DNA from: Camelus dromedarius
Taxonomy: Eukaryota
DNA length: 64,000 nt
Direction of reading: 5' to 3'
Assembly: GCF_036321535.1 (NCBI RefSeq)
Contig: NC_087436.1
Location: forward strand, 1,426,001 to 1,490,000
The first letter of the stretch is position 1, and each line of letters starts with the position of its first letter. The notes under the pieces are model-generated. The model searched no databases. It was not told the DNA's origin and worked only from the letters and a program-made list of their open reading frames with translations. Shown here piece by piece: positions 1 to 53,800 of this stretch. A program made the translations under genes and the position numbers.

Positions 1-17
1 ACGGCTTTCACACACAA

Positions 18-5980: not shown

Positions 5981-6099
5981 CTTTCACACACACTTATCTC
6001 TCAGAACTGAGCAAGTGGAGAGACGTTCGTTCATCTAGCACCAAGGGAACGGTTTGCAGGAGACACTTTTTCTCTGCTTTCTCAGTCTGTTTCCTAGTG

Positions 6100-15000: not shown

Positions 15001-15760
15001 CAACAAGGGAACGGGTTGCAGGAGACACTTTTTCTCTGCTTTCTCAGTCTGTTTCCTAGTGCCGGTTTGAAGTTCCTGCAGTTTTCACTGTAAAACCGAT
15101 TTGGAGCTAGTACCTCCCCATATATATGTATGGAATGGAGTTTGCAACTGAAAAGAAACTTTGTGTTCCCAACAAGCTAGGTGAAGGACGGCTTTCACAC
15201 ACACTTATCTCTCAGAACTGAGCAAGTGGAGAGACGTTCGTTCATCTAGCACCAAGGGAACGGGTTGCAGGAGACACTTTTTCTCTGCTTTCTCAGTCTG
15301 TTTCCTAGTGCCGGTTGGAAGTTCCTGCAGTTTTCACTGTCAAACCGAGTTGGAGCTAGTACCTCCCCATATATATGTATGGAATGGAGTTTGCAACTGA
15401 ATAGAAACTTTGTGTTCCCAACAAGCTAGTTGAAGGACGGCTTTCACACACACTTATCTCTCAGAACTGAGCAAGTGGAGAGACGTTTGTTCATCTAGCA
15501 CCAAGGGAACGGGTTGCAGGAGTCACTTTTTCTCTGCTTTCTCAGTCTGTTTCCTAGTGCCGGTTTGAAGTTCCTGCAGTTTTCACTGTAAAACCGAGTT
15601 GGAGCTAGTATCTCCCCATATATATGTATGGAATGGAGTTTACAACTGAAAAGAAACTTTGTGTTCCCAACAAGCTAGGTGAAGGACGGCTTTCACACAC
15701 ACTTATCTCTCAGAACTGAGCAAGTGGAGAGACGTTCGTTCATCTAGCACCAAGGGAACG
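6100..15760 (+). repeat. Nested block duplications with 20-mer (4979 bp), 25-mer (6224 bp) and 5-mer (1245 bp) offsets
   Basis: GTATGCAATGGAATT occurs at 7162, 12141 and 13386. GTTGAAGTAGAC occurs at 6302 and 11281. AGTAGTCACT occurs at 7801 and 14025. Each offset equals n x 249 minus the known 1-bp deletions. Boundaries are approximate. Confidence 0.85.
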
Positions 15761-28500: not shown

Positions 28501-31500
28501 GTGCCGGTTTGAAGTTCCTGCAGTTTTCACTGTAAAACCGAGTTGGAGCTAGTACCTCCCTTTATATATGTATGGAAAGGAGTTTGCAACTGAAAAGAAA
28601 CTTTGTGTTCCCAACAAGCTAGGTGAAGGACGGCTTTCACACACACTTATCTCTCAGAACTGAGCAAGTGGAGAGACGTTCGTTCATCTAGCACCAAAGG
28701 AACGGGTTGCAGGAGACACTTTTTCTCTGCTTTCTCAGTCTGTTTCGTAGTGCCGGTTTGAAGTTCCTGCAGTTTTCACTGTAAAACCGAGTTGGAGCTA
28801 GTACCTCCCAATATATATGTATGGAATGGAGTTTGCAACTGAAAAGAATCTTTGTGTTCCCAACAAGCTAGATGAAGGACGGCTTTCACACACACTTATC
28901 TCTCAGAACTGAGCAAGTGGAGAGACGTTCGTTCATCTAGCACCAAGGGAACGGGTTGCAGGAGACACTTTTTCTCTGCTTTCTCAGTCTGTTTCCTAGT
29001 GCCGGTTTGATGTTCCTGCAGTTTTCAATGTAAACCCGAGTTGGAGCTAGTACCTCAAAATATATATGTATGGAATGGAGTTTGCAACTGAAAAGAATCT
29101 TTGTGTTCCCAACAAGCTAGGTGAAGGACGGCTTTCACACACACTTATCTCTCAGAACTGAGCAAGTGGAGAGACGTTCGTTCATCTAGCACCAAGGGAA
29201 CGGGTTGCAGGAGACACTTTTTCTCTGCTTTCTCAGTCTGTTTCCTAGTGCCGGTTTGAAGTTCCTGCAGTTTTCACTGTAAAACCGAGTTGGAGCTAGT
29301 ACCTCCCCATATATATGTATGGAATGGAGTTTGCAACTGAAAAGAAACTTTGTGTTCCCAACAAGCTAGGTGAAGGACGGCTTTCACACACACTTATCTC
29401 TCAGAACTGAGCAAGTGGAGAGACGTTCGTTCATCTAGCACCAAGGGAACGGGTTGCAGGAGACACTTTTTCTCTGCTTTCTCAGTCTGTTTCCTAGTGC
29501 CGGTTTGAAGTTCCTGCAGTTTTCACTGTAAAACCGAGTTGGAGCTAGTACCTCCCCATATATATGTATGGAATGGGGTTTGCAACTGAAAAGAAACTTT
29601 GTGTTCCCAACAAGCTAGGTGAAGGACGGCTTTCACACACACTTATCTCTCAGAACTGAGCAAGTGGAGAGACGTTCGTTCATCTAGCACCAAGGGAACG
29701 GGTTGCAGGAGACACTTTTTCTCTGCTTTCTCAGTCTGTTTCCTAGTGCCGGTTTGAAGTTCCTGCAGTTTTCACTGTAAAACCGAGTTGGAGCTAGTAC
29801 CTCCCCATATAAATGTATGGAATGGTGTTTGCAACTGAAAAGAAACTTTGTGTTCCCAACAAGCTAGGTGAAGGACGGCTTTCACACACACTTATCTCTC
29901 AGAACTGAGCAAGTGGAGAGACGTTCGTTCATCTAGCACCAAGGGAACGGGTTGCAGGAGACACTTTTTCTCTGCTTTCTCAGTCTGTTTCCTAGTGCCG
30001 GTTTGAAGTTCCTGCAGTTTTCACTGTAAAACCGAGTTGGAGCTAGTACCTCCCCATATATATGTATGGAATGGTGTTTGCAACTGAAAAGAAACTTTGT
30101 GTTCCCAACAAGCTAGGTGAAGGACGGCTTTCACACACACTTATCTCTCAGAACTGAGGAAGTGGAGAGACGTTCTTTCATCTAGCACCAAGGGAACGGG
30201 TTGCAGGAGACACTTTTTCTCTGCTTTCTCAGTCTGTTTCCTAGTGCCGGTTTGAAGTTCCTGCAGTTTTCACTGTAAAACCGAGTTGGAGCTTGTACCT
30301 CCCAATATATATGTATGGAATGGAGTTTGCAACTGAAAAGAATCTTTGTGTTCCCAACAAGCTAGGTGAAGGACGGCTTTCACACACACTTATCTCTCAG
30401 AACTGAGCAAGTGGAGAGACGTTCGTTCATCTAGCACCAAGGGAACGGGTTGCAGGAGACACTTTTTCTCTGCTTTCTCAGTCTGTTTCCTAGTGCCGGT
30501 TTGAAGTTCCTGCAGTTTTCACTGTAAAACCGAGTTGGAGCTAGTACCTCCCCTTATATATGTATGGAATGGATTTTGCAACTGAAAAGAAACTTTGTGT
30601 TCCCAACAAGCTAGGTGAAGGACGGCTTTCACACACACTTATCTCTCAGAACTGAGCAAGTGGAGAGACGTTCGTTCATCTAGCACCAAGGGAACGGGTT
30701 GCAGGAGACACTTTTTCTCTGCTTTCTCAGTCTGTTTCCTAGTGCCGGTTTGAAGTTCCTGCAGTTTTCACTGTAAAACCGAGTTGGAGCTAGTACCTCC
30801 CCATATATATGTATGGAATGGAGTTTGCAACTGAAAAGAAACTTTGTGTTCCCAAGAAGCTAGGTGAAGGACGGCTTTCACACACATTTATCTCTCAGAA
30901 CTGAGCAAGTGGAGAGAAGTTCGTTCATCTAGCACCAAGGGAACGGGTTGCAGGAGACACTTTTTCTCTGCTTTCTCAGTCTGTTTCCTAGTGCCGGTTT
31001 GAAGTTCCTGCAGTTTTCACTGTAAAACCGAGTTGGAGCTAGTACCTCCCCATATATATGTATGGATTGGAGAATGCAACTGAAAAGAAACTTTGTGTTC
31101 CCAACAAGCTAGGTGAAGGACGGCTTTCACACACACTTATCTCTCAGAACTGAGCAAGTGCAGAGACGTTCGTTCATCTAGCACCAAGGGAACGGGTTGC
31201 AGGAGACACTTTTTCTCTGCTTTCTCAGTCTGTTTCCTAGTGCCGGTTTGAAGTTCCTGCAGTTTTCACTGTAAAACCGAGTTGGAGCTAGTACCTCCCC
31301 ATATATATGTATGGAATGGAGTTTGCAACTGAAAAGAAACTTTGTGTTCCCAACAAGCTAGGTGAAGGACGGCTTTCACACACACTTATTTCTCAGAACT
31401 GAGCAAGTGGAGAGACTTTCGTTCATCTAGCACCAAGGGAACGGGTTGCAGGAGACACTTTCTCTCTGCTTTCTCAGTCTGTTTCCTAGTGCCGGGTTGA

Positions 31501-34500
31501 AGTTCCTGCAGTTTTCACTGTAAAACCGAGTTGGAGCTAGTACCTCCCCATATATATGTATGGAATGGAGTTTGCAACTGAAAAGAAACTTTGTGTTCCC
31601 AACAAGCTAGGTGAAGGACGGCTTTCACACACACTTATCTCTCAGAACTGAGCAAGTGGAGAGACGTTCGTTCATCTAGCACCAAGGGAACGGGTTGCAG
31701 GAGACACTTTTTCTCTGCTTTCTCAGTCTGTTTCCTAGTGCCGGTTTGAAGTTCCTGCAGTTTTCACTGTAAAACCGAGTTGGAGCTAGTACCTCCCCAT
31801 ATATATGTATGGAATGGAGAATGCAACTGAAAAGAAACTTTGTGTTCCCAACAAGCTAGGTGAAGGACGGCTTTCACACACACTTATCTCTCAGAACTGA
31901 GCAAGTGGAGAGACGTTCGTTCATCTAGCACCAAGGGAACGGGTTGCAGGAGACACTTTTTCTCTGCTTTCTCAGTCTGTTTCCTAGTGCCGGTTTGAAG
32001 TTCCTGCAGTTTTCACTGTAAAACCGAGTTGGAGCTAGTACCTCCCCATATATATGTATGGAATGGAGTTTGCAACTGAAAAGAAACTTTGTGTTCCTAA
32101 CAAGCTAGGTGAAGGAAGGCTTTCACACACACTTATCTCTCAGAACTGAGCAAGTGGAGATTCGTTCGTTCATCTAGCACCAAGGGAACGGGTTGCAGGA
32201 GACACTTTTTCTCTGCTTTCTCAGTCTGTTTCCTAGTGCCGGTTTGAAGTTCCTGCAGTTTTCACTGTAAAACCGAGTTGGAGCTAGTACCTCCCCATAT
32301 ATATGTATGGAATGGGGTTTGCAACTGAAAAGAAACTTTGTGTTCCCAACAAGCTAGGTGAAGGACGGCTTTCACACACACTTAACTCTCAGAACTGAGC
32401 AAGTGGAGAGACGTTCGTTCATCTAGAACCAAGGGAACGGGTTGCAGGAGACACTTTTTCTCTGCTTTCTCAGTATGTTTCCTAGTGCCGGTTTGAAGTT
32501 CCTGCAGTTTTCACTGTAAAACCGAGTTGGAGCTAGTACCTCCCCTTATATAATTATGGAAAGGAGTTTGCAACTGAAAAGAAACTTTGTGTTCCCAACA
32601 AGCTAGGTGAAGGACGGCTTTCACACACACTTATCTCTCAGAACTGAGCAAGTGGAGAGACGTTCGTTCATCTAGCACCAAGGGAACGGGTTGCAGGAGA
32701 CACTTTTTCTCTGCTTTCTCAGTCTGTTTCCTAGTGCCGGGTTGAAGTTCCTGCAGTTTTCACTGTAAAACCGAGTTGGAGCTAGAACCTCCCCATATAT
32801 ATGTATGGAATGGAGTTTGCAACTGAAAAGAAACTTTGTGTTCCCAACAATCTAGGTGAAGGACGGCTTTCACACACACTTATCTCTCAGAACTGAGCAA
32901 GTTGAGAGACGTTCTTTCATCTAGGACCAAGGGAACGGGTTGAAGGAGACACTCTTTCTCTGCTTTCTCAGTCTGTTTCCTAGTGCCGGTTTGAAGTTCC
33001 TGCAGTTTTCACTGTCAAACCGAGTTGGAGCTAGTACCTCCCCATATATATGTATGGAATGGAGTTTGCAACTGAAAAGAAACTTTGTGTTCCCAACAAG
33101 CTAGGTGAAGGGCGGCTTTCACACACACTTATCTCTCAGAACTGAGCAAGTGGAGAGACGTTCGTTCATCTAGCACCAAGGGAACGGGTTGCAGGAGACA
33201 CTTTTTCTCTGCTTTCTCAGTCTGTTTCCTAGTGCCGGTTTGAAGTTCCTGCAGTTTTCACTGTCAAACCGAGTTGGAGCTAGTACCTCCCCATATATAT
33301 GTATGGAATGGAGTTTGCAACTGAAAAGAAACTTTGTGTTCCCAACAAGCTAGGTGAAGGACGGCTTTCACACACACTTATCTCTCAGAACTGAGCAAGT
33401 GGAGAGACGTTCGTTCATCTAGCACCAAGGGAACGGGTTGCAGGAGACACTTTTTCTCTGCTTTCTCAGTCTGTTTCCTAGTGCCGGTTTGAAGTTCCTG
33501 CAGTTTTCACTGTAAAACCGAGTTGGAGCTAGTACCTCCCAATATATATGTATGGAATGGAGTTTGCAACTGAAAAGAATCTTTGTGTTCCCAACAAGCT
33601 AGGTGAAGGACGGCTTTCACACACACTTATCTCTCAGAACTGAGCAAGTGGAGAGACGTTCGTTCATCTAGCACCAAGGGAACGGGTTGCAGGAGACACT
33701 TTTTCTCTGCTTTCTCAGTCTGTTTCCAAGTGCCGGTTTGAAGTTCCTGCAGTTTTCACTGTAAAACCGAGTTGGAGCTAGTACCTCCCCATATATATGT
33801 ATGGAATGGAGTTTGCAACTGAAAAGAAACTTTGTGTTCCCAACAAGCTAGGTGAAGGACGGCTTTCACACACACTTATCTCTCAGAACTGAGCAAGTGG
33901 AGAGACGTTCGTTCATCTAGCACCAAGGGAACGGGTTGCAGGAGACACTTTTTCTCTGCTTTCTCAGTCTGTTTCCTAGTGCCGGTTTGAAGTTCCTGCA
34001 GTTTTCAGTGTAAAACCGAGTTGGAGCTAGTACCTCCCAATATATATGTATGGAATGGAGTTTGCAACTGAAAAGAAACTTTGTGTTCCCAACAAGCTAG
34101 GTGAAGGACGGCTTTCACACACACTTATTTCTCAGAACTGAGCAAGTGGAGAGACGTTCGTTCATCTATCACCAAGGGAACGGGTTGCAGGAGACACTTT
34201 TTCTCTGCTTTCTCAGTCTGTTTCCTAGTGCCGGGTTGAAGTTCCTGCAGTTTTCACTGTAAAACCGAGTTGGAGCTAGTACCTCCCCATATATATGTAT
34301 GGAATGGAGTTTGCAACTGAAAAGAAACTTTGTGTTCCCAACAAGCTAGGTGAAGGACGGCTTTCACACACACTTATCTCTCAGAACTGAGCAAGTGGAG
34401 AGCGTTCGTTCATCTAGCACCAAGGGAACGGGTTGCAGGAGGCACTTTTTCTCTGCTTTCTCAGTCTGTTTCCTAGTGCCGGTTTGAAGTTCCTGCAGTT

Positions 34501-37500
34501 TTCACTGTAAAACCGAGTTGGAGCTAGTACCTCCCCATATATATGTATGGAATGGAGAATGCAACTGAAAAGAAACTTTGTGTTCCCAACAAGCTAGGTG
34601 AAGGACGGCTTTCACACACACTTATCTCTCAGAACTGAGCAAGTGGAGAGACGTTCGTTCATCTAGCACCAAGGGAACGGGTTGCAGGAGACACTTTTTC
34701 TCTGCTTTCTCAGTCTGTTTCCTAGTGCCGGTTTGAAGTTCCTGCAGTTTTCACTGTAAAACCGAGTTGGAGCTAGTACCTCCCCATATATATGTATGGA
34801 ATGGAGTTTGCAACTGAAAAGAAACTTTGTGTTCCCAACAAGCTAGGTGAAGGACGGCTTTCACACACACTTATCTCTCAGAACTGAGCAAGTGGAGAGA
34901 CGTTCGTTCATCTAGCACCAAGGGAACGGGTTGCAGGAGACACTTTTTCTCTGCTTTCTCAGTCTGTTTCCTAGTGCCGGTTTGAAGTTCCTGCAGTTTT
35001 CACTGTAAAACCGAGTTGGAGCTAGTACCTCCCAATATATATGTATGGAATGGAGTTTGCAACTGAAAAGAAACTTTGTGTTCCCAACAAGCTAGGTGAA
35101 GGACGGCTTTCACACACACTTATTTCTCAGAACTGAGCAAGTGGAGAGACTTTCGTTCATCTAGCACCAAGGGAACGGGTTGCAGGAGACACTTTCTCTC
35201 TGCTTTCTCAGTCTGTTTCCTAGTGCCGGGTTGAAGTTCCTGCAGTTTTCACTGTAAAACCGAGTTGGAGCTAGTACCTCCCCATATATATGTATGGAAT
35301 GGAGTTTGCAACTGAAAAGAAACTTTGTGTTCCCAACAAGCTAGGTGAAGGACGGCTTTCACACACACTTATCTCTCAGAACTGAGCAAGTGGAGAGACG
35401 TTCGTTCATCTAGCACCAAGGGAACGGGTTGCAGGAGACACTTTTTCTCTGCTTTCTCAGTCTGTTTCCTAGTGCCGGTTTGAAGTTCCTGCAGTTTTCA
35501 CTGTAAAACCGAGTTGGAGCTAGTACCTCCCCATATATATGTATGGAATGGAGAATGCAACTGAAAAGAAACTTTGTGTTCCCAACAAGCTAGGTGAAGG
35601 ACGGCTTTCACACACACTTATCTCTCAGAACTGAGCAAGTGGAGAGACGTTCGTTCATCTAGCACCAAGGGAACGGGTTGCAGGAGACACTTTTTCTCTG
35701 CTTTCTCAGTCTGTTTCCTAGTGCCGGTTTGAAGTTCCTGCAGTTTTCACTGTAAAACCGAGTTGGAGCTAGTACCTCCCCATATATATGTATGGAATGG
35801 AGTTTGCAACTGAAAAGAAACTTTGTGTTCCCAACAAGCTAGGTGAAGGACGGCTTTCACACACACTTAACTCTCAGAACTGAGCAAGTGGAGAGACGTT
35901 CGTTCATCTAGAACCAAGGGAACGGGTTGCAGGAGACACTTTTTCTCTGCTTTCTCAGTATGTTTCCTAGTGCCGGTTTGAAGTTCCTGCAGTTTTCACT
36001 GTAAAACCGAGTTGGAGCTAGTACCTCCCCTTATATAATTATGGAAAGGAGTTTGCAACTGAAAAGAAACTTTGTGTTCCCAACAAGCTAGGTGAAGGAC
36101 GGCTTTCACACACACTTATCTCTCAGAACTGAGCAAGTGGAGAGACGTTCGTTCATCTAGCACCAAGGGAACGGGTTGCAGGAGACACTTTTTCTCTGCT
36201 TTCTCAGTCTGTTTCCTAGTGCCGGGTTGAAGTTCCTGCAGTTTTCACTGTAAAACCGAGTTGGAGCTAGAACCTCCCCATATATATGTATGGAATGGAG
36301 TTTGCAACTGAAAAGAAACTTTGTGTTCCCAACAATCTAGGTGAAGGACGGCTTTCACACACACTTATCTCTCAGAACTGAGCAAGTTGAGAGACGTTCT
36401 TTCATCTAGGACCAAGGGAACGGGTTGAAGGAGACACTCTTTCTCTGCTTTCTCAGTCTGTTTCCTAGTGCCGGTTTGAAGTTCCTGCAGTTTTCACTGT
36501 CAAACCGAGTTGGAGCTAGTACCTCCCCATATATATGTATGGAATGGAGTTTGCAACTGAAAAGAAACTTTGTGTTCCCAACAAGCTAGGTGAAAGGCGG
36601 CTTTCACACACACTTATCTCTCAGAACTGAGCAAGTGGAGAGACGTTCGTTCATCTAGCACCAAGGGAACGGGTTGCAGGAGACACTTTTTCTCTGCTTT
36701 CTCAGTCTGTTTCCTAGTGCCGGTTTGAAGTTCCTGCAGTTTTCACTGTCAAACCGAGTTGGAGCTAGTACCTCCCCATATATATGTATGGAATGGAGTT
36801 TGCAACTGAAAAGAAACTTTGTGTTCCCAACAAGCTAGGTGAAGGACGGCTTTCACACACACTTATCTCTCAGAACTGAGGAAGTGGAGAGACGTTCGTT
36901 CATCTAGCACCAAGGGAACGGGTTGCAGGAGACACTTTTTCTCTGCTTTCTCAGTCTGTTTCCTAGTGCCGGTTTGAAGTTCCTGCAGTTTTCACTGTAA
37001 AACCGAGTTGGAGCTAGTACCTCCCAATATATATGTATGGAATGGAGTTTGCAACTGAAAAGAATCTTTGTGTTCCCAACAAGCTAGGTGAAGGACGGCT
37101 TTCACACACACTTATCTCTCAGAACTGAGCAAGTGGAGAGACGTTCGTTCATCTAGCACCAAGGGAACGGGTTGCAGGAGACACTTTTTCTCTGCTTTCT
37201 CAGTCTGTTTCCAAGTGCCGGTTTGAAGTTCCTGCAGTTTTCACTGTAAAACCGAGTTGGAGCTAGTACCTCCCCATATATATGTATGGAATGGAGTTTG
37301 CAACTGAAAAGAAACTTTGTGTTCCCAACAAGCTAGGTGAAGGACGGCTTTCACACACACTTATCTCTCAGAACTGAGCAAGTGGAGAGACGTTCGTTCA
37401 TCTAGCACCAAGGGAACGGGTTGCAGGAGACACTTTTTCTCTGCTTTCTCAGTCTGTTTCCTAGTGCCGGTTTGAAGTTCCTGCAGTTTTCACTGTAAAA

Positions 37501-38290
37501 CCGAGTTGGAGCTAGTACCTCCCAATATATATGTATGGAATGGAGTTTGCAACTGAAAAGAAACTTTGTGTTCCCAACAAGCTAGGTGAAGGACGGCTTT
37601 CACACACACTTATTTCTCAGAACTGAGCAAGTGGAGAGACGTTCGTTCATCTAGCACCAAGGGAACGGGTTGCAGGAGACACTTTTTCTCTGCTTTCTCA
37701 GTCTGTTTCCTAGTGCCGGGTTGAAGTTCCTGCAGTTTTCACTGTAAAACCGAGTTGGAGCTAGTACCTCCCCATATATATGTATGGAATGGAGTTTGCA
37801 ACTGAAAAGAAACTTTGTGTTCCCAACAAGCTAGGTGAAGGACGGCTTTCACACACACTTATCTCTCAGAACTGAGCAAGTGGAGAGCGTTCGTTCATCT
37901 AGCACCAAGGGAACGGGTTGCAGGAGGCACTTTTTCTCTGCTTTCTCAGTCTGTTTCCTAGTGCCGGTTTGAAGTTCCTGCAGTTTTCTCTGTAAAACCG
38001 AGTTGGAGCTAGTACCTCCCCATATATATGTATGGAATGGAGAATGCAACTGAAAAGAAACTTTGTGTTCCCAACAAGCTAGGTGAAGGACGGCTTTCAC
38101 ACACACTTATCTCTCAGAACTGAGCAAGTGGAGAGACGTTCGTTCATCTAGCACCAAGGGAACGGGTTGCAGGAGACACTTTTTCTCTGCTTTCTCAGTC
38201 TGTTTCCTAGTGCCGGGTTGAAGTTCCTGCAGTTTTCACTGTAAAACCGAGTTGGAGCTAGTACCTCCCTTTATATATGTATGGAAAGGA
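22170..38290 (+). repeat. Three copies of a ~13-15 monomer block (starting near 22.2, 31.4 and 35.1 kb)
   Basis: TAATTATGGAAAGG occurs at 23341, 32551 and 36036. The 1-bp deletion GGAGAGCGTTCG occurs at 25191, 34401 and 37886. Offsets are 9210 (37 monomers) and 3485 (14 monomers). Confidence 0.85.
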
Positions 38291-41195
38291 GTTTGCAACT
38301 GAAAAGAAACTTTGTGTTCCCAACAAGCTAGGTGAAGGACGGCTTTCACACACACTTATCTCTCAGAACTGAGCAAGTGGAGAGACGTTCGTTCATCCAG
38401 CACCAAGGGAACGGGTTGCAGTAGACACTTTTTCTCTGCTTTCTAAGTCTGTTTCCTAGTGCCGGTTGGAAGTTCCTGCAGTTTTCACTGTCAAACCGAG
38501 TTGGAGCTAGTACCTCCCCATATATATGTATGGAATGGAGTTTGCAACTGATAAGAAACTTTGTGTTCCCAACAAGCTAGGTGAAGGACGGCTTTCACAC
38601 ACACATATCTCTCAGAACTGAGCAAGTGGAGAGACGTTCGTTCATCTAGCACCAATGGAACGGGTTGCAGGAGTCACTTTTCTCTGCTTTCTCAGTCTGT
38701 TTCCTAGTGCCGGTTTGAAGTTCCTGCAGTTTTCACTGTAAAACCGAGTTGGAGCTAGTATCTCCCCATATATATGTATGGAATGGAGTTTACAACTGAA
38801 AAGAAACTTTGTGTTCCCAACAAGCTAGGTGAAGGACGGCTTTCACACACACTTATCTCTCAGAACTGAGCAAGTGGAGAGACGTTCGTTCATCTAGCAC
38901 CAAGGGAACGGGTTGCAGGAGACAATTTTTCTCTGCTTTCTCAGTCTGTTTCCTAGTGCCGGTTTGATGTTCCTGCAGTTTTCACTGTAAAACCGAGTTG
39001 GAGCTAGTACCTCCCCATATATATGTATGGAATGGAGTTTGCAACTGAAAAGAAACTTTTTGTTCCCAACAAGCTAGGTGAAGGACGGCTTTCACACCTC
39101 CTATTTCTCAGAACTGAGAAATGGAGAGACGTTCGTTCATCTAGCACCAAGGGAACGGGTTGCAGGAGACACTTTTTCTCAGCTTTCTCAGTCTGTTTCC
39201 TAGTGCCGGTTTGAAGTTCGTGCAGTTTTCACTGTCAAACGGAGTTGGAGCTAGTACCTCCCCTTATATATGTATGGAATGGAGTTTGCAACTGAAAAGA
39301 AACTTTGTGTTCCCAACAAGCTAGGTGAAGGACGGCTTTCACACACACTTATTTCTCAGAACTGAGCAAGTGGAGAGACGTTCGTTCATCTAGCACCAAG
39401 GGAACGGGTTGCAGGAGACACTTTTTCTCTGCTTTCTCAGTCTGTTTCCTAGTGCCGGGTTGAAGTTCCTGCAGTTTTCACTGTAAAACCGAGTTGGAGC
39501 TAGTACCTCCCCATATATATGTATGGAATGGAGTTTGCAACTGAAAAGAAACTTTGTGTTCCCAACAAGCTAGGTGAAGGACGGCTTTCACACACACTTA
39601 TCTCTCAGAACTGAGCAAGTGGATAGACGTTCGTTCATCTAGCACCAAGGGAACGGGTTGCAGGAGACACTTTTTCTCTGCTTTCTCAGTCTGTTTCCTA
39701 GTGCCGGTTTGAAGTTCCTGCAGTTTTCACTGTAAAACCGAGTTGGAGCTAGTACCTCCCCATATATATGTATGGAATGGAGAATGCAACTGAAAAGAAA
39801 CTTTGTGTTCCCAACAAGCTAGGTGAAGGACGGCTTTCACACACACTTATCTCTCAGAACTGAGCAAGTGGAGAGACGTTCGTTCATCTAGCACCAAGGG
39901 AACGGGTTGCAGGAGAAACTTTTTCTCTGCTTTCTCAGTCTGTTTCCTAGTGCCGGGTTGATGTTCCTGCAGTTTTCACTGTAAAACCGAGTTGGAGCTA
40001 GTACCTCCCCATATATATGTATGGAATGGAGTTTGCAACTGAAAAGAAACTTTGTGTTCCCAACAAGCAAGGTGAAGGACGGCTTTCACACACACTTATC
40101 TCTCAGAACTGAGCAAGTGGAGATTCGTTCGTTCATCTAGCACCAAGGGAACGGGTTGCAGGAGACACTTTTTCTCTGCTTTCTCAGTCTGTTTCCTAGT
40201 GCCGGTTTGAAGTTCCTGCAGTTTTCACTGTAAAACCGAGTTGGAGCTAGTACCTCCCCATATATATGTATGGAATGGAGTTTGCAACTGAAAAGAAACT
40301 TTGTGTTCCCAACAAGCTAGGTGAAGGACGGCTTTCACACACACTTATCTCTCAGAACTGAGCAAGTGGAGAGACGTTCGTTCATCTAGCACCAAGGGAA
40401 CGGGTTGCAGGAGACACTTTTTCTCTGCTTTCTCAGTCTGTTTCCTAGTGCCGGTTTGAAGTTCCTGCAGTTTTCACTGTAAAACCGAGTTGGAGCTAGT
40501 ACCTCCCAATATATATGTATGGAATGGAGTTTGCAACTGAAAAGAAACTTTGTGTTCCCAACAAGCTAGGTGAAGGACGGCTTTCACACACACTTATTTC
40601 TCAGAACTGAGCAAGTGGAGAGACGTTCGTTCATCTAGCACCAAGGGAACGGGTTGCAGGAGACACTTTTTCTCTGCTTTCTCAGTCTGTTTCCTAGTGC
40701 CGGGTTGAAGTTCCTGCAGTTTTCACTGTAAAACCGAGTTGGAGCTAGTACCTCCCCATATATATGTATGGAATGGAGTTTGCAACTGAAAAGAAACTTT
40801 GTGTTCCCAACAAGCTAGGTGAAGGACGGCTTTCACACACACTTATCTCTCAGAACTGAGCAAGTGGAGAGACGTTCGTTCATCTAGCACCAAGGGAACG
40901 GGTTGCAGGAGACACTTTTTCTCTGCTTTCTCAGTCTGTTTCCTAGTGCCGGTTTGAAGTTCCTGCAGTTTTCACTGTAAAACCGAGTTGGAGCTAGTAC
41001 CTCCCTTTATATATGTATGGAAAGGAGTTTGCAACTGAAAAGAAACTTTGTGTTCCCAACAAGCTAGGTGAAGGACGGCTTTCACACACACTTATCTCTC
41101 AGAACTGAGCAAGTGGAGAGACGTTCGTTCATCTAGCACCAAGGGAACGGGTTGCAGGAGACACTTTTTCCCTGCTTTCTCAGTCTGTTTCCTAG

Positions 41196-44100
41196 TGCCG
41201 GTTTGAGTTCCTGCAGTGTTCAATGTAAAACCGAGTTGGAGCTCGTACCTCCCCATATATATGTATGGAATGGAGTTTGCAAGTGAAAAGATACTTTGTT
41301 TTCCCAACAAGCTTGGTGAAGGATGGCTTTCACACTCACCTACCTCTCAGAACTGAGCATGTGGAGAGACGTTCGTTCATCTAGCACAAAGGGAACGGGT
41401 TGCAGGAGAAACTTTTACTCTGGTTTCTAAGTCTGTTTCCTAGTGCCGGTTTGAAGTTCCTGCAGTTTTCACTGTAAAACAGAGTTATAGCTAATACCTC
41501 CCCATATATATGTATGGATTGGAGTTTGCAACTGAAAAGAAACTTTGTGATCCCAACAAGCTAGGTGTAGGACGGCTTTCACACACACTTATCTCTCAGA
41601 ACTGAGCATGTGGACAGACGTTCTTTCATCTAGCACAAAGGGAATGGATTGCAGGTGAAAATCATACTCTTGTTTCTCAGACTGTTTCCTACTGCCGGTT
41701 TGAAGTTCCTGCAGTTTTCACTGTAAAACCGAGTTGGAGCTATTACCTCCCCATATATATGTATGGTGTGGAGTTTGCAACTGAAAAGAAACTTTGTGTT
41801 CCCATCAAGCTAGGTGAAGGACGGCTTTCACACACACTTATCTCTCAGAAATGAGCATGTGGAGAGACATTCGTTCATCTAGCACAAAGGGTACGTGTTG
41901 CAGGTGAAAACTTTCTCTGGTTTCTCAGACTGTTTCCTACTGCCGGTTTGAAGATCCTGCAGTTTTCACTGTAAAACCGAGTTGGAGCTAGTACCTCCCC
42001 ATATATATGTATGGAGTGGAGTTTGCTACTGAAAAGAAACATTGTCTTCCCAAAAAGCTAGGTGAAGGACGGCTTTCAAAAACACTTATCTCTCAGAACT
42101 GAACATGTGGAGAGACGTTCGTTCATCTAGCACAAATGGAAAGGGTTGCAGGAGAAACTTTTACTCTGGTTTCTCAGTGTGTTTCCTAGTGCCGGTTTGA
42201 ATTTCCTGCAGGTTTCACTGTAAAACCGAGTTGGAGCTAGTACCTCCCCATATATATGTATGGATTGGGGTTTGCAACTGAAAAGAAACATTGTGTACCC
42301 AACAAGCTAGTTGTAGGCGGCTTTCACACACACTTATCTGTCAGAACTGAGCATGTGGAGAGACGTTCGTTCATCTAGCACAAAGGGAAATGGTTGCAGG
42401 AGAAACTTTTACTCTGGTTTCTCAGTCTGTTCACTAGTGCCGGTTTGAACTTCCTTCAGGTTTACCTGTAAAACATATTTGGTACTGTACCTACGCATAT
42501 ATATGTATGGAGTGGAATTTGCAACTGAAAAGAAACTTTGTGTTCAGTACAAGCTAGTTTAAGGGTGGCAATCACACACACAAATCTCTCAGAACTGAGC
42601 ATGTGGAGAGACTTTCGTTCATCTAGCACAAAGGGAAAGGGTTGCAGGAGAAACTATTACTCTGGTATCTCAGTGTGTTTCCTACTGCCGGTTTGAAGTT
42701 CCTGCAGTTTTCACTGTAAAACCGAGTTGGAGCTCGTACCTCCCCATATATATGTATGGAGTGGAGTTTGATACTGAAAAGAAACATTGTCTTCCCTACA
42801 AGCTAGGTGAAGAACGGCTTTCACACACACTTATCTCTCAGAACTGAGCATGTGGAGAGACGTTCGTTCATCTAGCACAAAGGAACGGGTTGCAGGAGAA
42901 ACTTTTACTCTGGTTTCTCAGTCTGTTTCCTAATGCCGGTTTGAAGTTCCTGCAGTTTACTCTGTAAAACCGAGTTGGAGCTAGTAATTCCCCATATATA
43001 TGTATGGAGTGGAGTTTGCAACTGAAAAGAAACTTTGTGTTCCCAACAAGCTAGGTAAAGGACGGCTTTCACCCACACTTATCTCTCAGAACTGAGCATG
43101 TGGAGAGACGTTCGTTCATCTAGCACAAAGGGAACGGGTTGCAGGAGAAACTTTTACTCTGGTTTCTCAGTCTGTTTCCTACTGCCGATTTGAAGTTCCT
43201 GCAGTTTTCACTGTAAAACAGATTTGGAGCTAGGACCTCCCCATATATATGTATGGAGTGGAATATGCAACTGAAAAGAAACTTTGTGTTCAGTACAAGC
43301 TAGGTGAAAGACGGCTTTCACACACACTTATCTCTCAGAACTGAGCATGTGGAGAGACGTTCGTTCATCTAGCACAAAGGGAACGGGTTGCATGGAAACT
43401 TTTACTCTGGTTTCTCAGTCTGTTTCCTACTGCCAGTTCGAAGTTCCTGCAGTTTTCACTTTAAAACCGAGTTGGGGCTAGTACCTACCCATATATATGT
43501 ATGGAGTGGAGTTTGCAACTGAAAAGAAGCTTTGTGTTCCCAACAAGCTAGGTGAAGTCGGCTTTCACACACACTTATCTCTCAGAACTGAGCATGTGGA
43601 GAGACGTTCGTTCATCTAGCACAAAGGGAACGTGTTGCAGGAGAAACTTTTACTTTGGTTTCTCAGTCTGTTTCCTAGTACCGGTTTGAATTTCCTGCAG
43701 TTTTCACTGTAAAACCGATTTGTAGCTTGTACCACCCCATATATATTTATGGAGTGGGGATTGCAATTGAAAAGAAACTATGTGTTCCCAACAAGCTAGG
43801 TGAAGGACGGCTTTCACACACACATATCTCTCAGAACTGAGCATGTGGAGAGATGTTCGTTCATCTAGCACAAAGGGAATGGGTTGCAGGAGAAACTTTT
43901 ACTCTGGTTTCTCAGTCTGTTTCCTAGTGCCGGTTTGAAGTTCCTGCATTTTTCCCTGTAAAACAGATTTGGAGCTAGTACCTCCCCATATATATGTATG
44001 GATTGGAATTTGCAACTGAAAAGAAACTTTGTGTTCAGTACAAGCTAGGTGAAGGACGGCTTTCACACACACTTATCTCTCATAACTTAGCATGTGGAGA

Positions 44101-47100
44101 GTCATTCGTTCATCTAGCACAAAGGGAATGGGTTGCAGGAGAAATTTTACTCTGGTTTCTCAGTCTGTTTCTACTGCCGGTTTGAAGTTCCTGCAGTTTT
44201 CCTTGTAAAACCGATTTGGAGCTCGTACCTCCCCATATATATGTATGGACTGGAATTTGCAAGTGAAAAGAAACTTTGTGTTCCCAACAAGCTAGGTGAA
44301 AGATGGCTTTCACACACAATTATCTCTGAGAACTGAGCATGTGGAGAGACGTTCATTCATCTAGCAGAAAGGGAAAGGTTTGCAGGAGAAACTTTTACTC
44401 TGGTTTCTCAGTCTGTTTCCTACAGCCTGTTTGAAGTTCCTGCAGTTTTCACTGTAAAAGAGAGTTGAAGCTAGAACCTCCCCATATATATGTATGGAGT
44501 GGAGTTTGCAACTGAAAAGGAACTTTGTGTTCCCAACTAGCTATGTGAAGGACGGCTTTCACACACACTTATCTCTCAGAACTGAACATGTGGAGAGACG
44601 TTCGTTCATCTAGCACAAAGGGAACGGGTTGCAGGAGAAATTTTTACTCTGGGTTCTCAGTCTATTTCCTACTGCCGGTTTGAAGTTATTGCTCTTTTCA
44701 CTGTAAAAACGTGTTGTAGCTCGTATCTCCCCATATATATGTAGGGAGTGGAGTTTGCAACTGAAAAGAAACTTTGTGTTCCCAACAAGCTAGGTGAAGG
44801 ACGGCTTTCACACACAATTATCTCTCAGAACTGAGCATGTGGATAGACGTTCATTCATCTAGCACAAGGGAACGGTTTGGAGGAGAAACTTATACTCTGG
44901 TTTCTCAGTCTGTTTCCTTGTGACGGTTTGAAGTTCCTGCATGTTTCACTGTAAAAACCAGTTGGAGTTAGTACCTCTCCATATATATGTATGGAGTGGA
45001 GTTTGCACGTGAAAAGAAACATTGTGTTCCCAACAAGCTAGGTTAAGGACGGCTTTCACACACATAAATCTCTCAGGACTGAGCATGTGGAGAGACGTTC
45101 GTTTATCTAGCACAATAGGAACGGGTTGCAGGAGAAACTTTTACTCTGGATTCTACGTCTGTTTCCTAGTGCCGGTTTGAAGTTCCTGCAACTTTCACTG
45201 TAAAACCGAGTTGGAGCTAGTACCACTCCATATATATGTATGGATTGGAGTTTGCAACTGAAAAGAAACTTTGTGTTCCCAACAAGCTAAGTGAAGTACG
45301 ACATTCACACACATTAATCTCTCAGAACTGAGCATGTGGAGAGACGTTCGTTCATCTAGCACAAAGGAACGGGTAGCAGGAGAAATTTTACTCTGGTTTC
45401 TCAGTCTGTTTCCTAATACCGGTTTGAAGTTCCTGCAGTTTTCTCTGTAAAACCGAGTTGGAGCTAGTAATTCCCCATATATATGTATGGAGTGGAGTTT
45501 GCAACTGAAAAGAAACTTTGTATTCAGTATAATCTTGCTGAAGAACGGCTTTCACACACATTTATCTCTCAGAACTGAGCATGTGGAGAGACGTTCATTC
45601 ATCTAGCACAAAGGGAACGGGTTGCAGGAGAAACTTTTACTATCGTTTCTCAGTCTGTTTCCTACTGCCGGTTTGAAGTTCCTGCAGTTTTCACTGTAAA
45701 ACCGTCTTGGAGCCTGTACCTCCCCATATATATGTATGGAGTGGAGTTAGCAACTGAAAAGAAACTTTGTGTTCAGAACAAGCTAAGTGAAGGACGGCTT
45801 TCACACACACTTATATCTCAGAACTGAGCATGTGGAGAGACGTTCGTTCATCTAGCACAAAGGGAACGGGTTGCAGGAGAAACTTTTACTCTGGTATCTC
45901 AGTCTGTTTCCTACTGCCGGTTTGAAGTTCCTGCAGATTTCACTGTAAAACAGAGTTGGAGCTAGTACCTCCCATATATATGTATGGAGTGGGGTTTACA
46001 ACTGAAAAGTAACTTTGTGTTCCCAACAAGCTATGTGAAGGAGGGATTTCACACACACTTATCCCTCAGAACTGAGCATTTGGAGAGACGTTCGTTCATC
46101 TAGCACAAAGGGAACGGGTTGCATGTGAAAATTTTACTCTGGTTTCTCAGAGTGTTTTCCTACTGCCGGTTTGAAGTTCCCGCAGTTTTCACTGTAAAAC
46201 CGAATTGGAGCTAGTACCTCCCCATATATATGTATGGAGTGTAGTTTGCAAGTGAAAAGAAACATTGTGTTCCCAACAAGCTAGGTGAAGGACGGCTTTC
46301 ACACACACTTATCTCTCAGAATTGAGCATGTAGAGAGACGTTCGTTCATCTAGCACAAAGGGAAAGGGTTACAGGAGAAACTTTTACTCTGGTTTCTCAG
46401 TCTGTTTCCTAATGCCGGTTTGAATTTCCTGCAGTTTTTAGGGTAAAACCGAGTTGGAGCATGTACCTCCCCATATATATGTATGGAGTGGAGTTTCCAA
46501 CTGAAAAGTAACTTTGTGTTACCAAAAAGCTAGGTGAAGGACGGCTTTCACTCACACTTATCTCTCAGAACTGAGCATGTGGAGAGACTTTCGTTCATCT
46601 AGAACAAAGGGAACGGGTTGTAGGAGAAACTTTTACTCTGGTATCTCAGTGTGTTTCCTACTGCCGGTTTGAGTTCCTGCAGTGTTCAATGTAAAACCGA
46701 GTTGGAGCTCGTACCTCCCCATATATATGTATGGAATGGAGTTTGCAAGTGAAAAGATACTTTGTTTTCCCAACAAGCTTGGTGAAGGATGGCTTTCACA
46801 CTCACCTACCTCTCAGAACTGAGCATGTGGAGAGACGTTCGTTCATCTAGCACAAAGGGAACGGCTTGCAGGAGAAACTTTTACTCTGGTTTCTCAGTCT
46901 GTTTCCTAGTGCCGGTTTGAAGTTCCTGCAGTTTTCACTGTAAAACAGATTTATAGCTAGTACCTCCCCATATATATGTATGGATTGGAGTTTGCAACTG
47001 AAAAGAAACTTTGTGATCCCAACAAGCTAGGTGTAGGACGGCTTTCACACACACTTATCTCTCAGAACTGAGCATGTGGAGAGACTTTCGTTCATCTAGC

Positions 47101-48170
47101 ACAAAGGGAATGGATTGCAGGTGAAAATCATACTCTTGTTTCTCAGACTGTTTCCTACTGCCGGTTTGAAGTTCCTGCAGTTTTCACTGTAAAACCGAGT
47201 TGGAGCTATTACCTCCCCATATATATGTATGGAGTGGAGTTTGCAACTGAAAAGAAACTTTGTGTTCCCATCAAGCTAGGTGAAGGACTGCTTTCACACA
47301 CACTTATCTCTCAGAAATGAGCATGTGGAGAGACATTCGTTCATCTAGCACAAAGGGTACGTGTTGCAGGTGAAAACTTTCTCTGGTTTCTCAGACTGTT
47401 TCCTACTGCCGGTTTGAAGATCCTGCAGTTTTCACTGTAAAACCGAGTTGGAGCTAGTACCTCCCCATATATATGTATGGAGTGGAGTTTGCTACTGAAA
47501 AGAAACATTGTCTTCCCAAAAAGCTAGGTGAAGGACGGCTTTCAAAAACACTTATCTCTCAGAACTGAACATGTGGAGAGACGTTCGTTCATCTAGCACA
47601 AAGGGAAAGGGTTGCAGGAGAAACTTTTACTCTGGTTTCTCACTGTGTTTCCTAGTGCCGGTTTGAAGTTCCTGCAGGTTACACTGTAAAACAGAGTTGG
47701 AGCTAGTACCTCCCAATATATATGTATGGATTGGGGTTTGCAACTGAAAAGAAACATTGTGTACCCAACAAGCTATTTGAAGGCGGCTTTCACACACACT
47801 TATCTGTCAGAACTGAGCATGTGGAGAGACGTTCGTTCATCTAGCACAAAGGGAACGGGTTGCAGGAGAAACTTTTACTCTGGTTTCTCAGTCTGTTCAC
47901 TAGTGCCGGTTTGAACTTCCTTCAGGTTTACCTGTAAAACATATTTGGAACTGTACCTACGCATATATATGTATGGAGTGGAATTTGCAACTGAAAAGAA
48001 ACTTTGTGTTCAGTACAAGCTAGTTTAAGGGCGGCAATCACACACACAAATCTCTCAGAACTGAGCATGTGGAGAGACTTTCGTTCATCTAGCACAAAGG
48101 GAAAGGGTTGCAGGAGAAACTATTACTCTGCTATCTCAGTGTGTTTCCTACTGCCGGTTTGAAGTTCCTG
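41196..48170 (+). repeat. 22-monomer higher-order unit (5466 bp) followed by a partial second copy
   Basis: Markers at +5466: TTTGAGTTCCTGCAGTGTTCAATG ~41202/46668, GGAATGGATTGCAGGTGAAAATCATA 41641/47107, CTGTACCTACGCAT ~42485/47951. Confidence 0.88.
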
Positions 48171-50819
48171 CAGTTTTCTCTGTAAAACCGAGTTGGAGCT
48201 AGTAATTCCCCATATATATGTATGGAGTGGAGTTTGCAACTGAAAAGAAACTTTGTATTCAGTATAATCTTGCTGAAGGACGGCTTTCACACACATTTAT
48301 CTCTCAGAACTGAGCATGTGGAGAGACGTTCATTCATCTAGCACAAAGGGAACGGGTTGCAGGAGAAACTTTTACTCTGGTATCTCAGTCTGTTTCCTAC
48401 TGCCGGTTTGAAGTTCCTGCAGATTTCACTGTAAAACAGAGTTGGAGCTTGTACCTCCCATATATATGTATGGAGTGGAGTTTACAACTGAAAAGTAACT
48501 TTGTGTTCCCAACAAGCTATGTGAAGGAGGGATTTCACACACACTTATCCCTCAGAACTGAGCATTTGGAGAGACGTTCGTTCATCTAGCACAAAGGGAA
48601 CGGGTTGCATGTGAAAATTTTACTCTGGTTTCTCAGACTGTTTTCCTACTGCCGGTTTGAAGTTCCTGCAGTTTTCACTGTAAAACCGAATTGGAGCTAG
48701 TACCTCCACATATATATGTATGGAGTGGAGTTTGCAACTGAAAAGAAACTTTGTGTTCCCATCAAGCTAGGTGAAGGACGGCTTTCACACACACTTATCT
48801 CTCAGAAATGAGCATGTGGAGAGACATTCGTTCATCTAGCACAAAGGGTACGTGTTGCAGGTGAAAACTTTCTCTGGTTTCTCAGACTGTTTCCTACTGC
48901 CGGTTTGAAGATCCTGCAGTTTTCACTGTAAAACCGAGTTGGAGCTAGTACCTCCCCATATATATGTATGGAGTGGAGTTTGCTACTGAAAAGAAACATT
49001 GTCTTCCCAAAAAGCTAGGTGAAGGACGGCTTTCAAAAACACTTATCTCTCAGAACTGAACATGTGGAGAGACGTTCGTTCATCTAGCACAAAGGGAAAG
49101 GGTTGCAGGAGAAACTTTTACTCTGGTTTCTCAGTCTGTTTCCTAGTGCCGGTTTGAAGTTCCTGCAGGTTTCACTGTAAAACCGAGTTGGAGCTAGTAC
49201 CTCCCCATATATATGTATGGATTGGGGTTTGCAACTGAAAAGAAACATTGTGTACCCAACAAGCTATTTGAAGGCGGCTTTCACACACACTTATCTGTCA
49301 GAACTGAGCATGTGGAGAGACGTTCGTTCATCTAGCACAAAGGGAACGGTTTGCAGGAGAAACTTCTACTCTGGTTTCTCAGTCTGTTCACTAGTGCCGG
49401 TTTGAACTTCCTTCAGGTTTACCTGTAAATCATATTTGGAACTGTACCTACGCATATATATGTATGGAGTGGAATTTGCAACTGAATAGAAACTTTGTGT
49501 TCAGTACAAGCTAGTTTAAGGGCGGCAATCACACACACAAATCTCTCAGAACTGAGCATGTGGAGAGACTTTCGTTCATCTAGCACAAAGGGAAAGGGTT
49601 GCAGGAGAAACTATTACTCTGGTATCTCAGTGTGTTTCCTACTGCCGGTTTGAAGTTCCTGCAGTTTTCACTGTAAAACCGAGTTGGAGCTCGTACCTCC
49701 CCATATATATGTATGGAGTGGAGTTTGAAACTGAAAAGAAACATTGTCTTCCCTACAAGCTAGGTGAAGGACGGCTTTCACACACACTTATCTCTCAGAA
49801 CTGAGCATGTGGAGAGACGTTCGTTCATCTAGCACAAAGGAACGGGTTGCAGGAGAAACATTTACTCTGGTTTCTCAGTCTGTTTCCTAATGCCGGTTTG
49901 AAGTTCCTGCAGTTATCTCTGTAAAACCGAGTTGGAGCTAGTAATTCCCCATATATATGTATGGGGTGGAATATGCCACTGAAAAGAAACTTTGTGTTCA
50001 GTACAAGCTAGGTGAAAGACGGCTTTCACACACACTTATCTCTCAGAACTGAGCATGTGGAGAGACGTTCGTTCATCTAGCACAAAAGGAACGGGTTGCA
50101 GGGAAACTTTTACTCTGGTTTCTCAGTCTGTTTCCTACTGCCAGTTCGAAGTTCCTGCAGTTTTCACTTTAAAACCGAGTTGGAGCTAGTACCTACCCAT
50201 ATATATGTATGGAGTGGAGTTTGCAACTGAAAAGAAACTTTGTGTTCCCAACAAGCTAGGTGAAGGCGGCTTTCACACACACTTATCTCTCAGAACTGAG
50301 CATGTGGAGAGACGTTCGTTCATCTAGCACAAAGGGAACGTGTTGCAGGAGAAACTTTTACTTTGGTGTCTCAGTCTGTTTCCTAGTACCGGTTTGAATT
50401 TCCTGCAGTTTTCACTGTAAAACCGATTTCTAGCTTGTACCACCCCATATATATTTATGGATTGGAGATTGCAATTGAAAAGAAACTATGTGTTCCCAAC
50501 AAGCTAGGTGAAGAACGGCTTTCACACACACATATCTCTCAGAACTGAGCATGTGGAGAGACGTTCGTTCATCTAGCACAAAGGGAATGGTTTGCAGGAG
50601 AAACTTTTACTCTGGTTTCTCAGTCTGTTTCCTAGTGCCGGTTTGAAGTTCCTGCAGTTTTCCTTGTAAAACCGATTTGGAGCTCGTACCTCCCCATATA
50701 TATGTATGGACTGGAATTTGCAAGTGAAAAGAAACTTTGTGTTCCCAACAAGATAGGTGAAAGATGGCTTTCACACACAATTATCTCTGAGAACTGAGCA
50801 TGTGGAGAGACGTTCATTC

Positions 50820-53800
50820 ATCTAGCACAAGGGAACGGTTTGAAGGAGAAACTTATACTCTGGTTTCTCAGTCTGTTTCCTTGTGACGGTTTGAAGTTCC
50901 TGCAGGTTTCACTGTAAAACCAGTTGGAGTTAGTACCTCTCCATATATATGTATGGAGTGGAGTTTGCAAGTGAAAAGAAACATTGTGTTCCCAACAAGC
51001 TAGGTTAAGGACGGCTTTCACACACATAAATCTGTCAGGACTGAGCATGTGGAGAGACGTTCGTTTATCTAGCACAATAGGAATGGGTTGCAGGAGAAAT
51101 TTTTACTCTGGATTCTACGTCTGTTTCCTAGTGCCGGTTTGAAGTTCCTGCAACTTTCACTGTAAAACCGAGTTGGAGCTAGTACCACCCCATATATATG
51201 TATGGATTGGAGTTTGGAACTGAAAAGAAACTTTGTGTTCCCAACAAGCTAAGTGAAGTACGGCTTTCACACACATTAATCTCTAAGAACTGAGCATGTG
51301 GAGAGACGTTCGTTCATCTAGCACAAAGGAACGGGTAGCAGGAGTAATTTTACTCTGGTTTTTCAGTCTGTTTCCTAATGCCGGTTTGAAGTTCCTGCAG
51401 TTTTCTCTGTAAAACCGAGTTGGAGCTAGTAATTCCCCATATATATGTATGGAGTGGAGTTTGCAACTGAAAAGAAACTTTGTGTTCCCAACAAGCTAGG
51501 TAAAGGACGGCTTTCACCCACACTTATCTCTCAGAACTGAGCATGTGGAGAGACGTTCGTTCATCTAGCACAAAGGGAACGGGTTGCAGGAGAAACTTTT
51601 ACTCTGGTTTCTCAGTCTGTTTCCTACTGCCGGTTTGAAGTTCCTGCAGTTTTCACTGTAAAACAAATTTCTAGCTAGTACCTCCCCATATATTTGTATG
51701 GAAATGAATATGCAACTGAAAAGAAACTTTGTGTTCAGTACAAGCTAGGTGAAAGACGGCTTTCACACACACTTATCTCTCAGAACTGAGCATGTGGAGA
51801 GACGTTCGTTCATCTAGCACCAAGGGAACGGGTTGCAGGGAAACTTTTACTCTGGTTTCTCAGTCTGTTTCCTACTGCCGGTTTGAAGTTCCTGCAGTTT
51901 TCACTTTAAAACCGAGTTGGAGCTAGTACCTACCCATATATATGTATGGAGTGGAGTTTGCAAATGAAAAGAAATTTTGTTCCCAACAAGCTAGGTGAAG
52001 GCGGCTTTCACACACACTTATCTCTCAGAACTGAGCATGTGGAGAGACGTTCGTTCATCTAGCACAAAGGGAACGTGTTGCAGGAGAAACTTTTACTTTG
52101 GTTTCTCAGTCTGTTTCCTAGTACCGGTTTGAATTTCCTGCAGTTTTCACTGTAAAACCGATTTCTAGCTTGTACCACACCATATATATTTATGGAGTGG
52201 ATATTGCAATTGAAAAGAAACTATGTGTTCCCAACATGCTAGGTGAAGGACGGCTTTCACACACACATATCTCTCAGAACTGAGCATGTGGAGAGACGTT
52301 CGTTCATCTAGCACAAAGGGAACGGGTTGCAGGAGAAACTTTTACTCTGGTTTCTCAGTCTGTTTCCTAGTGCCGGTTTGAAGTTCCTGCAGTTTTCACT
52401 TTAAAACAGATTTGGAACTTGTACCACCCCATATATATTTATGGAGTGGAATTTGCAACTGAAAAGAAACTTTGTGTTCAGTACAAGCCAGGTGAAGGAC
52501 GGCTCACACACACTTATCTTTCAGAACTTAGCATGTGGAGAGACGTTCATTCATCTAGCAGATAGGGAAAGGGTTGCAGGGGAAACTTTTACTCTGGTTT
52601 CTCAGACTGTTTCCTACTGCCGGTTTGAAGTTCCTGCAGTTTTCACTGCAAAACCGATTTGAAGCTCGTACCTCCCCATATATATGTATGGAGTGGAGTT
52701 TGCAACTGAAAAGAAACTTTGTGTTCCCAACTAGCTATGTGAAGGACGGCTTTCACACACACTTATCTCTCAGAACTGAGCATGTGGAGAGACGTTCGTT
52801 CATCTAGCACAAAGGGAACGGGTTGCAGGGGAAACTTTTACTCTGGTTTTTCAGTCTGTTTCCTACAGCCGGTTTGAAGTTCCTGCAGTTTTCACTGTAA
52901 AAGAGAGTTGAAGCTAGAACCACCCCATATATATGTATGGAGTGGAGTTAGCAACTGAAAAGAAACTTTGTGTTCCGAACAAGCTAGGTGAAGGCGGCTT
53001 TCACACACAGTTATCTCTCAGAACTGAGCATGTGGAGAGACGTTCATTCATCTAGCACAAAGGGAACGGGTTGCAGGGAAACTTTTACTCTGGTTTTTCA
53101 GTCTGTTTCCTAGTACCGGTTTGAAGTTCCTGCAGTTTTCACTGTAAAATCGAGTTGCAGATACTACTTCCCCATTTATATGTATGGAGTAGAATTTGCA
53201 ACTGAAAAGAAACTTTGTGTTCAGTACAAGCTATGTGAAAGACAGCTTTCACACACAAATATCTCTCAGAACTGAGCATGTGGAGAGACGTTCGTTCATC
53301 TAGCAAAAAGGGAATGGTTTGCAGGAGAAACTTTTACTCTGGTTTCACAGTCTGTTTCCTAGTGCCAGTTTGAAGTTCCTGCATTTTTCCCTGTAAAACA
53401 GATTTGGAGCTATTACCTCCCCATATATATGTATGGAGTGGAATTTGCAACTGAAAAGAAACTTTGTGTTCAGTACAAGCTTGGTGAAGGACGGCTTTCA
53501 CACACACTTATCTCTCAGAACTTAGCATGTGGAGAGTCGTTCGTTCATCTAGCACAAAGGGAACGGGTTGCAGGAGAAACTTTTACTCTGGTTTCTCAGT
53601 CTTTTTCCTAGTGCCGGTTTGAATTTCCTGCAGTATTCACTTTAAAACAGATTTGGTACTTGTACCACCCCATATATATTTATGGAGTGGAATTTGCAAC
53701 TGAAAAGAAACTTTGTGTTCAGTACAAGCCAGGTGAAGGACGGCTTTCACACACACTTATCTTTCAGAACTTAGCATGTGGAGAGACGTTCATTCATCTA

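Follow-up and report, generated by a model that had tools for sequence, protein, structure and literature searches.

A phase-keeping junction between two layers of a 249-bp candidate centromeric satellite in the dromedary

The satellite array and its two layers

The 64,000-nucleotide stretch of Camelus dromedarius DNA analyzed here (contig NC_087436.1, positions 1,426,001 to 1,490,000; hereafter the window, with positions counted from its first letter) is occupied from 1 to 64000 by a single 249-bp tandem satellite, arranged as 257 head-to-tail copies according to Tandem Repeats Finder (TRF), with no N bases. An earlier reading of the sequence only had proposed that two subfamilies of this satellite, A and B, meet in register near 41.2 kb. 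The array was cut into 256 full monomers, which were then aligned, and 165 of them were classified as type A, 90 as type B and one as a hybrid. The A monomers showed on average 3.8 differences from their own consensus and 7.2 in pairwise comparisons (2.9%), the B monomers 15.7 and 27.0, respectively, and the mean pairwise distance between A and B was 24.7 differences, with only 7 columns differing between the two consensuses. Layer assignment was scored at five near-fixed A/B columns, where 159 A monomers carried five A states and the remaining 6 carried four, and where 86 B monomers carried none and 4 carried one. All A monomers lie left of 41140 and all B monomers right of 41387; the array thus switches from A to B once, in phase and with no mixing zone, as the sequence-only reading had claimed. 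The monomer split and tree that it had proposed also separated A from B, the 165 A monomers forming a single clade (FastTree support 0.81) set apart by 6 near-fixed changes. The coordinates of the layers, the junction and the duplicated blocks are given in Table 1.

Table 1 Features of the satellite array in the window
Feature	Position	Strand	Remarks
Type A layer, young and uniform	1..41195	+	165 full monomers (66-41139) and the 5' part of the hybrid; continues beyond the left window end
A block adjoining the junction	34652..41195	+	mostly a near-exact copy of A at ~21.7-28.5 kb, 49-52 monomers upstream
Hybrid A/B monomer, 248 bp	41140..41387	+	columns 1-57 A-like, columns 58-250 identical to the twin
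Conservative switch interval, near-fixed sites only	41176..41206	+	31 bp; 41175 is C in 162/165 A and 1/90 B; shared 1-bp deletion after 41206
Switch interval, twin taken as donor	41196..41206	+	11 bp; donor painting returns the identical interval
Type B layer, older and diverged	41207..64000	+	90 full monomers (41388-63736) after the hybrid; block-duplication patchwork; continues beyond the right window end
Twin of the six B monomers just past the junction	46662..48153	+	lag 22 monomers (5,466 bp); 22 mismatches/1,502 columns (1.5%)
Young duplication inside B	55179..63736	+	55179-58487 vs 60373-63736; lag 21 monomers; 13 mismatches/3,334 columns (0.4%)

A gradual cline toward the junction was rejected, since the last 20 A monomers had 3.55 differences, compared with 3.86 in the remainder. 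Weak positional trends were present in both layers (rho -0.20 in A and +0.24 in B, among monomers that are non-independent). The A monomers that diverge most, by up to 12 differences, are found at 6540-16496, distant from the junction, and some of them carry alleles frequent in B (columns 98, 107, 138 and 167) without any of the states near-fixed in B at columns 1, 30 and 223.

The closest described relative is a 248-nt tandem repeat of Lama glama with 45% GC (guanine plus cytosine), which makes up 2.9% of that genome and is annotated 'HOR not found' (HOR, higher-order repeat) in supplements 1 and 3 of Melters et al. 2013 (PMC4053949). Counted by eye, the llama monomer differs from the B consensus in ~15 of 249 columns (~94% alike) and from the A consensus in ~20 of 249 (~92% alike), and at 6 of the 7 diagnostic columns it agrees with B, and at the remaining one, the polymorphic column 57, with A. 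The similar monomer length, head-to-tail arrangement, GC content and sequence suggest, at the level of this comparison by eye, that the dromedary satellite belongs to the same family. The B states in llama also indicate that B is near the shared state and that A is derived. The published monomer is B-like, and in those supplements neither an A variant nor a layering is described and the repeat is called centromeric by abundance, Melters et al. having equated the most abundant repeat with the centromere while noting exceptions. The stretch was found in 20 of 23 listed sequencing runs from 11 studies under two organism labels. In four of the 23 listed runs (X15, X1, X7 and X8), 12,115-18,455 Logan contigs per run matched the 241 bp at 41100-41340, and the summed contig depth over the A part was 1.4-15 million in all four, a measure that is not a copy number.

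In the open-access literature we found neither A/B subfamilies nor an internal organization described for the camelid 248/249-bp satellite, and text searches with the satellite motifs gave no match there or in the spreadsheet of a 2026 alpaca satellite survey (PMC13751797). That survey concerns non-centromeric repeats of 1.8-8.5 kb; the parts of it covered here do not describe the 248/249-bp repeat, and 'CENP' is absent from its main text. The subfamilies and their layering may be a new detail of a little-described camelid satellite. Hybrid units and layer boundaries as such are already known in human and Arabidopsis centromeres. Two other candidate identities were rejected: two Rfam matches at 40600-41900 scored far under the gathering score, and the PaB6 satellite of Prospero, also 249 bp long, has seven telomeric hexamers per monomer (PMC4273535) and is a different repeat, since the hexamer occurs once in the whole window.

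The hybrid monomer and the switch interval

The single hybrid monomer carries A states at 41140, 41162, 41169 and 41175, and its columns 1-57 show 1 difference from most A monomers and at least 5 from any B monomer. Its remaining 193 columns (58-250), which include 13 non-A states, show no difference from one B monomer, the twin at 46606-46853, and at least 13 from any A monomer. The exact match between hybrid and twin spans 203 bp (41196-41398, matched 5,466 bp downstream), whereas the best A donor matches exactly only as far as 41206, and the overlap of the two matches defines the 11-bp switch interval. The junction proposed from the sequence, mappable to ~11 bp, is thus reproduced, with a wider interval of 31 bp when near-fixed sites only are used. 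The left bound is valid only if the twin represents the donor, because the G at 41195 also occurs in 38 of 90 B monomers; given that donor, the claim that the monomer is A-type up to 41195 holds, and near-fixed A states reach 41175. In favor of the twin as donor, C occupies the 41195 column in 17 of the 18 B monomers with the same column-107 allele as the hybrid. The upstream part of the twin monomer (46606-46661) is B-type, as had been read. Among the three motifs regarded as private to the hybrid and its twin, two occur exactly twice (41201/46667 and 41214/46680), but the third occurs 13 times, always in B, and is B-specific rather than private.

We compared the junction with other switches in the window by donor painting, in which each stretch was assigned its best in-register donor in the window at switch penalties of 3, 4, 6 and 8. 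The array contained 68, 58, 52 and 49 in-register donor switches, respectively, some of which may reflect donors beyond the window, and reciprocal events are counted twice. From the junction rightwards, 10 of 24 switch intervals were 11 bp or shorter (median 19.5), and, with 21 informative sites that distinguish A from the twin, a random breakpoint would have a 46% chance of mapping to an interval no wider than 11 bp. The 11-bp width therefore reflects marker resolution and is uninformative about the length of homology used. No breakpoint hotspot inside the monomer was found (22 events, P 0.29), and the predicted fold of the hybrid monomer was no better than that of shuffles (z -0.15). An imperfect palindrome lies at 41250-41269, around the AT-rich center of the monomer, and is present in both consensuses too. 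The sole aspect that sets the 41.2-kb switch apart from the others in the window is that it joins layers A and B. The join is real, but it is an everyday scar of the repeat-to-repeat recombination typical of such arrays.

The 11-bp window might also have been shaped in several steps, with the main join elsewhere in 41176-41206 or nearby and short gene conversions acting on the hybrid or on the 5' end of its twin. Conversion tracts of this kind average 58.5 bp in Arabidopsis centromeres (10.1101/2025.06.02.657473), the left bound is set by three sites (41177, 41185 and 41195) whose hybrid states are also common in B, and neighboring pairs of twin monomers are unevenly different (7, 2, 0, 8 and 4 differences). 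However, the switch is followed by 193 difference-free columns and preceded by three differences in 20 bp, and painting at penalties of 4, 6 and 8 detected no tract of one layer inside the other, with one weak tract at penalty 3. On balance, we regard a history of this type as very unlikely.

Duplicated blocks and the origin of the join

Both flanks of the junction are members of duplicated blocks (Table 1). On the B side, the likeness of the flank to its twin begins at the junction, and the upstream neighbors of the twin (46361-46661) have no close copy in the 64-kb window, their best donor there being 7.6% away. Taken together, these observations suggest that the left copy was cut by the junction; a duplication that happened to start at a pre-existing junction is less likely. 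On the A side, the copy of the adjoining block shows 13 mismatches in 5,174 columns (0.25%) over five of eight painted segments at lags of -49 to -52, a count that leaves out three segments with other lags. The upstream counterpart of this block continues as A, which makes a similar but weaker argument. Across B, block duplications have lags of 21, 15, 6, 22, 39 and 28 monomers, with 13, 8, 7, 5 and 5 close pairs at lags 21, 15, 6, 22 and 39, respectively. No regular higher-order repeat was found in B, where the mean distance at the best lag was 22.4 compared with ~27. The proposed union of a young homogenised array with an older higher-order layer is accordingly upheld for the relative age and uniformity of A and B, but not for the regular higher-order structure, because B is a patchwork. 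The A layer (66-41195) is also a patchwork of duplications, with lags of 10, 14, 20, 25, 28, 37 and 51-52 monomers and no single higher-order period.

We infer that the locus is probably a boundary between two layers of the major camelid 248/249-bp candidate centromeric satellite, at which the join was later cut by a homology-directed, phase-keeping event. The derived variant A, with its 6 near-fixed changes, would have expanded and been homogenized beside or inside the older B layer. A later event, either a deletion through single-strand annealing or unequal exchange, or a template switch during break-induced replication, could then have paired an A monomer with a ~90%-alike B monomer and left one hybrid monomer. 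The join appears to be younger than the duplications on its flanks (0.25% on the A side and 1.5% on the B side), and hence would not mark the original seeding point of A. The earlier proposal of a single homology-directed crossover, template switch or deletion agrees with an in-register, homology-directed join; the repair pathway is suggested by this structure, and one event is the simplest reading of it.

Published observations are consistent with such an origin. Arabidopsis mutation-accumulation lines acquire phase-keeping indels of whole units in the CEN178 satellite, often with new units at the breakpoints and of up to 105 kb in rtel1, which are tied to homology-directed repair (10.1101/2025.06.02.657473). 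The camelid array resembles CEN178 in its whole-unit gains or losses, its new unit at the breakpoint and its homogenized blocks with distinct neighbors; the Arabidopsis events were observed as they arose and linked to RTEL1, whereas the camelid event is deduced from one sequence. Hybrid monomers, layered expansion and inter-array seeding are reported for human alpha satellite (Altemose et al., 10.1101/2021.07.12.452052), which likewise has young uniform and older diverged layers and indels that make hybrid monomers. It is a different repeat, however, and no regular higher-order unit or CENP-B box core was found in the window; the symmetry of the flanks is not visible within 64 kb. A break-induced-replication model has also been published (10.1101/731471).

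Several points weigh against this origin. The sequence of events is deduced from twins that are missing in a single 64-kb window, where donors from outside would not be visible. The cut on the A side is weak, as only ~3 monomers are absent relative to the upstream copy, where they may be a later insertion. Repair pathways are indistinguishable from one haplotype. In addition, no contig bridging the junction was present among the listed Logan pieces (51-59 bp, 4 runs), which is evidence neither way.

The join could instead be the original seeding boundary, at which a single copying event brought A into B from a different chromosome or array, followed by local expansion, leaving the join as one of the two primary ends of A. 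Human centromeres provide documented cases of seeding between arrays (10.1101/2021.07.12.452052), A passes into B without an intermediate layer, and the missing upstream twin could sit at the other end of A, beyond the window. Nevertheless, the B twin blocks are 1.5% apart, less than the 2.9% pairwise divergence of A, so the join seems younger than the spread of A itself and a later deletion or template switch fits better than a first seeding. This diversity argument is tempered by the abundance of A, which by a rough measure is very high in 4 of 4 runs, so that A possibly arrived already diverse. We consider seeding at this point distinctly unlikely.

Satellite arrays are prone to assembly errors, and a comparable boundary could arise if a mis-join or a chimeric read had brought an A array and a B array together. 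Within the window, however, exact words common to A and B reach at most 68 bp, far under long-read overlap lengths, and the B flank, which differs from its twin at 22 of 1,502 columns, is a separate copy rather than a repeated read. Since the phase is also kept, with no N bases, an overlap mis-join is unlikely, and an artefact of either kind is highly improbable.

Mutation spectrum and centromere activity

The transition/transversion ratio (Ti/Tv) of recent changes was 37/95 in A (0.39; 117 nearest pairs) and 45/105 in B (0.43; 46 pairs), and singletons, which are biased against recurrent transitions, gave 17/41 and 24/58, respectively. In human arrays, a Ti/Tv of 0.55 is reported for active arrays, with higher values in older layers and ~2 in euchromatin (PMC13684623). 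The transversion-rich spectrum of both camelid layers thus resembles that of active human alpha satellite, here in a repeat in which the CENP-B box core pattern had no match on either strand of the window (best 6 of 9). Changes were AT-biased in both layers, with C>A and C>T changes outnumbering T>C and T>G changes by 74:20 in A and 87:12 in B.

Human CENP-A commonly, though not always, occupies the youngest layer (10.1101/2021.07.12.452052), and the sequence-only reading had suggested that the junction might be the edge of a functional centromere core. The young, uniform and abundant A layer may be a fair candidate for the CENP-A layer, with a chance slightly better than even. By an indirect criterion taken from human arrays, an inactive outer layer would lack recent duplications and show a restored transition bias; B instead contains the 3.3-kb duplication at 0.4% and has a Ti/Tv like that of A. 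The equally low ratios suggest that both layers are centromere-like, with no step at the join, and these two features of B hint against a sharp edge between active and inactive repeats there. A CENP-A domain ending at the 41.2-kb join would be much less likely than occupancy of A.

A very recent, still polymorphic large deletion might have brought an A layer that bears CENP-A into direct contact with an old one; we regard this as unlikely, though conceivable. If true, the join would provide a single-copy marker for the edge of a camelid centromere without CENP-B boxes. With ratios near 0.4 in both layers, the locus could test whether the transversion-rich spectrum known from human active arrays is tied to CENP-A occupancy or only to repeat recombination. 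The mechanistic gain is small, as satellite arrays are expected to form hybrid monomers where breakpoints keep the phase. The six near-fixed A/B sites allow short reads from CENP-A experiments to be assigned to one layer or the other. The junction word, which is unique in the window, provides an assembly check and a population marker.

Base composition also varies along the array. The GC content of the window ranges from 0.42 to 0.46, and past the junction (41207-64000) it falls from ~0.45 to ~0.42, with the GC skew rising from ~0.03 to ~0.07.

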